The position numbers were made by a program, and so were the translations under genes. From Escherichia coli (GTDB taxonomy: Bacteria; Pseudomonadota; Gammaproteobacteria; Enterobacterales; Enterobacteriaceae), in NCBI RefSeq assembly GCF_003790525.1, contig NZ_CP033635.1: a stretch of 64,000 bases of DNA; one strand, written 5' to 3'. This document shows, piece by piece, positions 1,605 to 2,687 of this stretch. Each line of letters begins with the position of its first letter. The stretch's first letter is position 1. Below the pieces are notes generated by a model that saw only the letters and a program-made list of their open reading frames with translations, was not told the origin of the DNA and ran no database searches.

Positions 1605-2687
1605 ATGGCTCAGCTTTCGTTACAACATATTCAAAAAATCTACGATAACCAGGTGCATGTGGTGAAGGACTTCAACCTGGAAATTGCCGATAAAGAGTTC
1701 ATTGTCTTTGTCGGTCCGTCAGGCTGCGGTAAATCGACTACGCTGCGCATGATTGCCGGGCTTGAGGAGATCAGCGGTGGCGATCTGTTGATCGACGGCA
1801 AACGAATGAATGACGTTCCAGCCAAAGCGCGCAATATCGCGATGGTGTTCCAGAACTACGCGCTGTATCCGCATATGACGGTCTACGACAACATGGCGTT
1901 TGGCCTGAAGATGCAAAAAATCGCCAAAGAGGTGATTGATGAGCGGGTTAACTGGGCGGCGCAAATCCTCGGCCTGCGTGAGTACCTGAAACGCAAGCCG
2001 GGCGCGCTTTCTGGCGGGCAACGCCAGCGTGTGGCGCTCGGACGGGCGATTGTGCGCGAAGCGGGCGTGTTTTTAATGGATGAACCGCTCTCTAACCTTG
2101 ATGCCAAGCTGCGCGTACAAATGCGCGCAGAGATCAGCAAGCTGCATCAGAAACTGAACACCACCATGATCTACGTGACCCACGATCAGACCGAAGCGAT
2201 GACCATGGCGACGCGGATTGTGATTATGAAGGATGGGATTGTTCAGCAGGTCGGTGCGCCGAAAACGGTTTATAACCAACCTGCGAATATGTTTGTTGCC
2301 GGATTTATTGGATCGCCTGCGATGAATTTTATTCGCGGCACGATCGATGGCGATAAATTCGTTACGGAAACGCTTAAATTAACCATACCCGAAGAGAAAT
2401 TAGCGGTTCTGAAAACACAGGAAAGTTTGCATAAGCCCATCGTGATGGGAATACGCCCGGAAGATATTCATCCGGACGCGCAAGAGGAAAATAACATTTC
2501 CGCCAAAATTAGCGTGGCAGAATTAACCGGTGCGGAATTTATGCTCTACACCACGGTTGGGGGGCACGAGTTAGTGGTCCGTGCTGGTGCGTTAAATGAT
2601 TATCATGCAGGAGAAAATATCACTATTCATTTTGATATGACTAAATGTCATTTCTTTGATGCAGAAACGGAAATAGCAATTCGCTAA
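1605..2687 (+). CDS. ycjV: ABC transporter ATP-binding subunit (MalK/UgpC-like), apparently intact
   Basis: 360 aa; Walker A GPSGCGKST, ABC signature LSGGQRQR, Walker B FLMDEPLSNLD; RBS AAGGAA upstream. Confidence 0.9.
   Translation: MAQLSLQHIQKIYDNQVHVVKDFNLEIADKEFIVFVGPSGCGKSTTLRMIAGLEEISGGDLLIDGKRMNDVPAKARNIAMVFQNYALYPHMTVYDNMAFGLKMQKIAKEVIDERVNWAAQILGLREYLKRKPGALSGGQRQRVALGRAIVREAGVFLMDEPLSNLDAKLRVQMRAEISKLHQKLNTTMIYVTHDQTEAMTMATRIVIMKDGIVQQVGAPKTVYNQPANMFVAGFIGSPAMNFIRGTIDGDKFVTETLKLTIPEEKLAVLKTQESLHKPIVMGIRPEDIHPDAQEENNISAKISVAELTGAEFMLYTTVGGHELVVRAGALNDYHAGENITIHFDMTKCHFFDAETEIAIR

Follow-up and report, generated by a model that had tools for sequence, protein, structure and literature searches.

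An intact ycjV gene in an Escherichia coli chromosome and the frameshifted ycjV allele of K-12

The ycjV gene was found intact in a 64,000-nucleotide stretch of an Escherichia coli chromosome (contig NZ_CP033635.1), which we call the window, and its counterpart in K-12 is frameshifted, with five Gs in a run where the window has six. Taking the parts of the reading jointly, it is highly probable that the window carries the ancestral, intact ycjV allele, that the product acts as the ATPase of the YcjNOP importer, that the gene belongs to the operon controlled by YcjW, and that the lesion is nearly confined to K-12. The intactness, the motifs, the lesion and its distribution were observed here, while the ATPase activity of a near-identical protein and the repression by YcjW come from the literature. 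Both the intact state of ycjV and its pseudogene status in K-12 are already known from RefSeq annotation. The finding itself is of little weight, since this is the standard E. coli allele.

The ycjV gene and its predicted product

An ORF scan of the window found a frame that runs from ATG to TAA through 360 codons with zero internal stops. A Shine-Dalgarno-like AAGGA lies 7 nt 5' of the ATG. Lying last but one in the ycjMNOPQRSTUV-ompG cluster, ycjV follows the stop codon of ycjU/pgmB by 13 nt and is separated from ompG by a spacer of 44 nt. The genes at this end of the window are the following.

36..935, + strand: 3' end of ycjT (GH65 kojibiose phosphorylase), last 299 codons, from ORF and synteny
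932..1591, + strand: ycjU/pgmB, beta-phosphoglucomutase, 219 aa, intact, from ORF and comparison
1605..2687, + strand: ycjV, 360-aa ABC importer ATPase, intact, WP_000057972.1, from ORF, domains, motifs and DNA identity
2732..3637, + strand: ompG, monomeric porin, 301 aa, intact, from ORF and comparison
3688..4686, - strand: ycjW, LacI-family repressor of the cluster, 332 aa, intact, from ORF, with the repressor role taken from PMC6599011

The ycjT gene is partial because the window begins inside it.

YcjV has every motif of an ABC nucleotide-binding subunit, in the canonical order. Walker A is at residues 37-44 (GPSGCGKS), the Q-loop at 82-83 (FQ), the signature at 135-139 (LSGGQ), Walker B with its catalytic Glu at 155-160 (VFLMDE), the D-loop at 163-166 (SNLD) and the H-loop at 192-194 (THD). 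The sequence-only reading of this DNA had claimed an unbroken frame of 360 codons with all the ABC motifs, and the ORF and motif scans bear this out. Pfam places ABC_tran (PF00005) at residues 21-162 (E=1e-31; 110 bits against a cut-off of 25), OB_MalK at 236-288 (54.9 bits) and TOBE_2 at 282-351 (39.8 bits). With OB_MalK and TOBE after the nucleotide-binding domain (NBD), and with full-length similarity to MsmX and MalK, YcjV belongs to the CUT1 (MalK/UgpC/MsmX-type) ATPases. In NCBIfam, it scores 485 bits with the UgpC subfamily model, above the cut-off of 432. Its score with the MalK equivalog model NF008233 is 431 bits, which is below the cut-off of 568, and YcjV is therefore a paralogue of MalK and not MalK proper.

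Loci whose annotation reads 'ABC transporter ATP-binding protein' (WP_000057972.1) are 100% identical in DNA to the window gene. The pgmB-ycjV-ompG synteny and the 96-100% DNA identity to at least 4980 E. coli loci place it among the YcjV orthologues. It is an unremarkable member of that group, with no departure from the family in its sequence.

The corresponding protein of E. coli B, WP_000057985.1 (also that of BL21 and C41(DE3)), has been expressed and its ATPase activity reported (PMC7658222). It is identical to the window YcjV at 359 of 360 residues, the exception being residue 232, which is A in the window and S in WP_000057985.1. In E. coli B the gene has the same position as in the window, between pgmB and ompG, and the C41(DE3) and window copies differ at 36 nucleotides, of which 35 are synonymous. 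The window YcjV, one residue away from the ATPase-active WP_000057985.1, is predicted to hydrolyze ATP as well. The assignment of YcjV as an ATPase, which draws on the sequence together with the literature, is solid.

The K-12 lesion and its distribution

Two features of the window gene are needed to describe the K-12 allele.

2559..2564, + strand: G6 homopolymer run, codons 319-320 (Gly-Gly), site of the G6 to G5 change in K-12, located by global alignment
2565..2684, + strand: codons 321-360, the C-terminal 40 residues and last part of TOBE, lost in K-12, from the translation and the TOBE_2 match at 282-351

The claim that ycjV is annotated as a pseudogene in K-12 proved correct. In NZ_CP064679.1, the K-12 gene is 1082 nt long and is flagged as a 'frameshifted' pseudogene in the RefSeq/PGAP annotation. 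This gene is b1318, and its C-terminal fragment used to be called ymjB. The global alignment of the window and K-12 genes has one gap only, at the G-run, where G6 in the window stands against G5 in K-12. The inactivating lesion is the loss of one G at 2559-2564, and K-12 is not equally intact. The window gene, with its six Gs and a frame that is open to codon 360, is not a pseudogene of the K-12 type. The K-12 product has 322 aa, with two out-of-frame codons after the lesion, and ends in ...TTVGGTS followed by the stop.

Apart from the missing G, the K-12 gene is well preserved. The window and K-12 genes share 96.6% nucleotide identity and, besides the gap, differ at 36 positions, of which 35 are synonymous and the remaining one is not (A232S). 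Once the G is restored, the tail of K-12, now out of frame, gives a C-terminus identical to that of the window, and ycjV of E. coli B C41(DE3) is K-12 ycjV plus one G, being otherwise identical. The 35:1 synonymous bias and the preserved tail indicate that the K-12 lesion is recent and that the gene is otherwise well kept. The same ratio points to strong purifying selection on the ycjV frame throughout the species.

We infer a loss of YcjV function in K-12. A different reading is that the lesion is silent, either because the 322-aa K-12 protein still works or because another CUT1 ATPase such as MalK or UgpC energizes YcjNOP, in which case strains with either allele would use sugars alike. The frameshift spares residues 1-320, and with them the complete NBD with all its catalytic motifs as well as the OB_MalK segment, and E. 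coli MalK and UgpC are interchangeable. Shared or multitask ATPases are also well documented in the family (PMC7658222). However, the truncation removes residues 321-360, about 40% of the TOBE_2 match, a segment in which E. coli YcjV and Bacillus MsmX show strong conservation. The selection on the full-length frame likewise speaks against a dispensable C-terminus. In addition, MG1655 does not grow with kojibiose as sole carbon source, as relayed in PMC6599011; a transport defect could explain this, but the result does not prove one. We consider a silent difference rather unlikely, and a K-12 YcjV that has probably lost its function is the reading preferred here.

The distribution of the two alleles was determined among 5426 complete E. 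coli genomes, of which 5001 have ycjV. The exact G6 48-mer was found in 4453 genomes; the right flank of this query seeds on either allele, and the alleles were told apart by identity bands. The G5 query was a 49-mer whose 22-nt flanks allow seeding on G5 alone, and it detected the G5 allele in 371 genomes. The large number of sequenced laboratory derivatives gives K-12 more than its share of this collection. Sixty rows sampled evenly from the 371 consisted overwhelmingly of K-12 strains and their descendants, among them MG1655, W3110, BW2952, MC4100, C600, J53 and XL1-Blue, and also RV308, NCM3722, WG1, NBRC 3301 and many 'laboratory' strains of 4.5-4.7 Mb. Since G6 predominates and G5 occurs mostly in K-12 derivatives, intact ycjV is the norm of the species and K-12 is the exception. 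The G5 lesion is almost entirely confined to the K-12 lineage. The implied claim that this strain is special for its intact ycjV does not survive these counts.

The G5 allele was also seen on at least three non-K-12 ycjV haplotypes: those of 95-3192 (5.39 Mb; 15 SNPs relative to K-12), EC6622 (21 SNPs) and OkiPb01703/10 (5.30 Mb; 5 SNPs). A different frameshift, +A in an A-run at about gene position 310 (about window 1909-1914), is present in FDAARGOS_1256. These non-K-12 frameshifts are either independent slippage events or long-read homopolymer assembly errors. Because G5 is seen on at least three such haplotypes, the G6 run of ycjV could be a recurrent slippage hotspot that turns the transporter off in some wild lineages.

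The location of the lesion in a G6 run, together with the isolated run frameshifts in the few long-read assemblies just named, would fit a homopolymer sequencing artefact behind either the intactness of the window gene or the K-12 lesion. This is extremely improbable. The exact G6 48-mer comes from independent genomes, and G5 is consistent in hundreds of independently sequenced K-12 derivatives, the early stocks WG1 and NCM3722 included. On these grounds, an artefact was rejected for the window and for K-12 alike.

About 425 of the 5426 complete genomes have no ycjV match. In at least one genome, DXMF6-3R (H40), only the last 231 nt of the gene are kept, and these are annotated as 'TOBE domain-containing protein'. 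Deletion is thus another way in which ycjV is lost.

The ycj cluster, its regulation and its substrate

The order ycjM-N-O-P-Q-R-S-T-pgmB-ycjV-ompG / ycjW is common to SMS-3-5, FDAARGOS_497 and K-12. In the window, none of ycjU, ompG and ycjW has an internal stop, and each is as long as its K-12 counterpart. YcjU carries A30V (window 1020), by which it differs from SMS-3-5 and K-12 alike. The first 25 kb of the window match SMS-3-5 (NC_010498.1) and a group of its relatives at effectively 100%, with 3 SNPs relative to SMS-3-5 in the first 37 kb. The window aligns to the reverse strand of NC_010498.1, from about 1,826,632 downwards. All twelve cluster genes of SMS-3-5 (ycjM-T, pgmB, ycjV, ompG and ycjW) are without pseudogene flags. 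The cluster of FDAARGOS_497 is also without such flags, and its ycjV is 100% identical to that of the window. The source strain therefore probably has every cluster gene intact, with ycjM-S and most of ycjT, which lie outside the window, judged from SMS-3-5. The sequence-only reading had placed ycjT, ycjU and ompG beside ycjV in a possibly functional system. This stands for ycjU and ompG, which are full length, and for ycjT it extends to the last 299 codons in the window.

The spacer between ompG and the convergent ycjW (3638-3687) is 50 nt in the window and 110 nt in K-12, and the extra sequence of K-12 resembles a REP-type palindromic element.

Elsewhere in the window, ydbD (DUF2773 bactofilin; 50850-53155, + strand) is frameshifted by an A6 to A5 change at 51549-51553, which ends the frame prematurely at codon 247 and leaves a residual ORF of 521 aa at 51590..53155. 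In SMS-3-5, ydbD is intact and encodes 768 aa, so this gene is the mirror image of the ycjV case: broken in the window and intact in SMS-3-5. The A5 allele was found in 2 of 5426 complete E. coli genomes, and it is either a private pseudogenization or an error in the source assembly. An intact ORF of 1984 aa lies at 43764-49718 (+ strand), and its annotation in SMS-3-5 is 'autotransporter domain-containing protein'. Its K-12 counterpart is presumably ydbA, an IS-interrupted pseudogene, and it would then be a second gene that is broken in K-12 and intact here.

Two candidate regulatory elements were found near ycjV.

902..915, + strand: candidate YcjW operator TGGGACCGCTACCA, inside the end of ycjT, 16 nt 5' of the ycjU start
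2693..2710, no strand assigned: GC-rich hairpin GGGGGAAGGCATTCCCCC, in the ycjV-ompG spacer sequence

PMC6599011 describes YcjW as a repressor of ycjMNOPQRSTUV-ompG with two ChIP-seq sites, the first 5' of ycjM and the second where ycjT meets ycjU, and gives its motif as 14 bp with a central CG. The candidate at 902..915 is a 14-mer, a near-palindrome with a central CG, and no second match turned up in the 64-kb window when 2 mismatches were tolerated. An identical copy is present in SMS-3-5, 12 nt 5' of the ycjM start (L008 2975-2988; ycjM from 3001). Judged by their position and by the description of the motif, the two copies are probably YcjW operators.

The hairpin between ycjV and ompG has a perfect 7-bp stem (GGGGGAA-GGCA-TTCCCCC) and no T-run on the + strand, and a terminator scan found it terminator-like on the - strand only. 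It might act in the stability or processing of the operon mRNA. In a promoter/terminator scan around the locus, sites were no more numerous than in shuffled sequence.

Gene clustering gives YcjV the permeases YcjO/YcjP, the lipoprotein binding protein YcjN and the porin OmpG as partners (PMC11543891). The clustering argues strongly for the pairing of YcjV with YcjNOP. In the proposed mechanism, a glucoside would cross the outer membrane via OmpG, and the lipoprotein YcjN would deliver it to the permeases. A cytoplasmic homodimer of YcjV would bind YcjO/YcjP, and the binding and hydrolysis of ATP by YcjV would drive import. The MalK-like OB/TOBE domain would hold the dimer together, with regulatory input being possible. 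The gene is transcribed within ycjMNOPQRSTUV-ompG under YcjW repression, and the G6 to G5 change of K-12 truncates the TOBE domain. That the importer takes a glucoside is likewise what we infer.

Kojibiose releases YcjW from DNA in vitro (PMC6599011). It is quite possible, at a little short of an even chance, that ycjV is intact and yet the cluster is cryptic, with another substrate (glucosylglycerate, or a guloside/3-keto-glucoside) or with silencing by YcjW, and that there is no kojibiose pathway. Kojibiose gave no thermal shift of YcjN, which it does not stabilize, and no YcjN ligand was found, kojibiose included (PMC11543891). The authors of PMC6599011 suggest that the natural inducer may be a compound other than kojibiose, and deletion of ycjW gave no better growth on kojibiose in their hands. 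The cluster also encodes YcjM, a glucosylglycerate phosphorylase, and the YcjQRS 3-keto-glucoside enzymes. In the window, ycjW is intact and the candidate operator is present. On the other side, the cited growth tests were done in K-12, which carries the ycjV lesion, although the window itself offers nothing against a cryptic cluster. Such a cluster is compatible with the best explanation, an ancestral ycjV that encodes the ATPase of YcjNOP, and limits only what is expected of kojibiose.

It is distinctly improbable that the missing G is the reason, or one reason, why K-12 fails on kojibiose and why the substrate of the cluster has stayed elusive. If it were, natural isolates and E. coli B with intact ycjV would import and use the real substrate, and repair of the run to G6 in MG1655 would unlock the phenotype.

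The published growth tests that we found were all in K-12, as was most of the genetics. Because ycjV is frameshifted in K-12, negative growth or uptake results obtained there (e.g., with kojibiose) should not be generalized. The YcjN papers, PMC11543891 among them, make no mention of the pseudogene status of K-12 ycjV. Studies of the ycj cluster are better done in strains whose ycjV is intact, such as BL21 or natural isolates like the present SMS-3-5-like strain. Those who engineer K-12 use the ycjV pseudogene locus as a neutral integration site (PMC10380740; PMC11731478). In a secondary source, ycjV is cited among the genes implicated in bovine gut colonization by EHEC (PMC8009128).

Comparison with MsmX and MalK

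The alignment of the window YcjV with B. subtilis MsmX (PDB 6YIR; E=1e-148) runs from one end to the other, and the two proteins have a common architecture of NBD plus regulatory domain. The C-terminus of MsmX in 6YIR shares FDM.K.HFFD.ETE..IR with YcjV, within the 40 residues that K-12 loses. The identity between YcjV and MsmX is given as 64% (PMC7658222). MsmX is encoded by an orphan gene and is a multitask ATPase for several CUT1 importers, whereas ycjV forms part of a single cluster. In B. subtilis, E. coli YcjV could not take the place of MsmX, and AraNPQ and GanSPQ were not energized (PMC7658222). This failure with AraNPQ and GanSPQ says little about the cognate partners of YcjV.

E. coli MalK (PDB 1Q12, 2R6G), the ATPase of MalFGK2, aligned with YcjV over residues 1-353 (E=5e-100). 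The two have the family, the fold, and the OB_MalK and TOBE domains in common. MalK has regulatory interactions with MalT and EIIAGlc, which YcjV is not known to share. In type I importers of the MalFGK2 family, two ATPase subunits lie beneath two permeases. When ATP drives the NBD dimer to close, the permeases flip, and the substrate that the binding protein has brought is set free. The C-terminal OB/TOBE domains hold the dimer in this family; in MalK, they also take regulatory signals.
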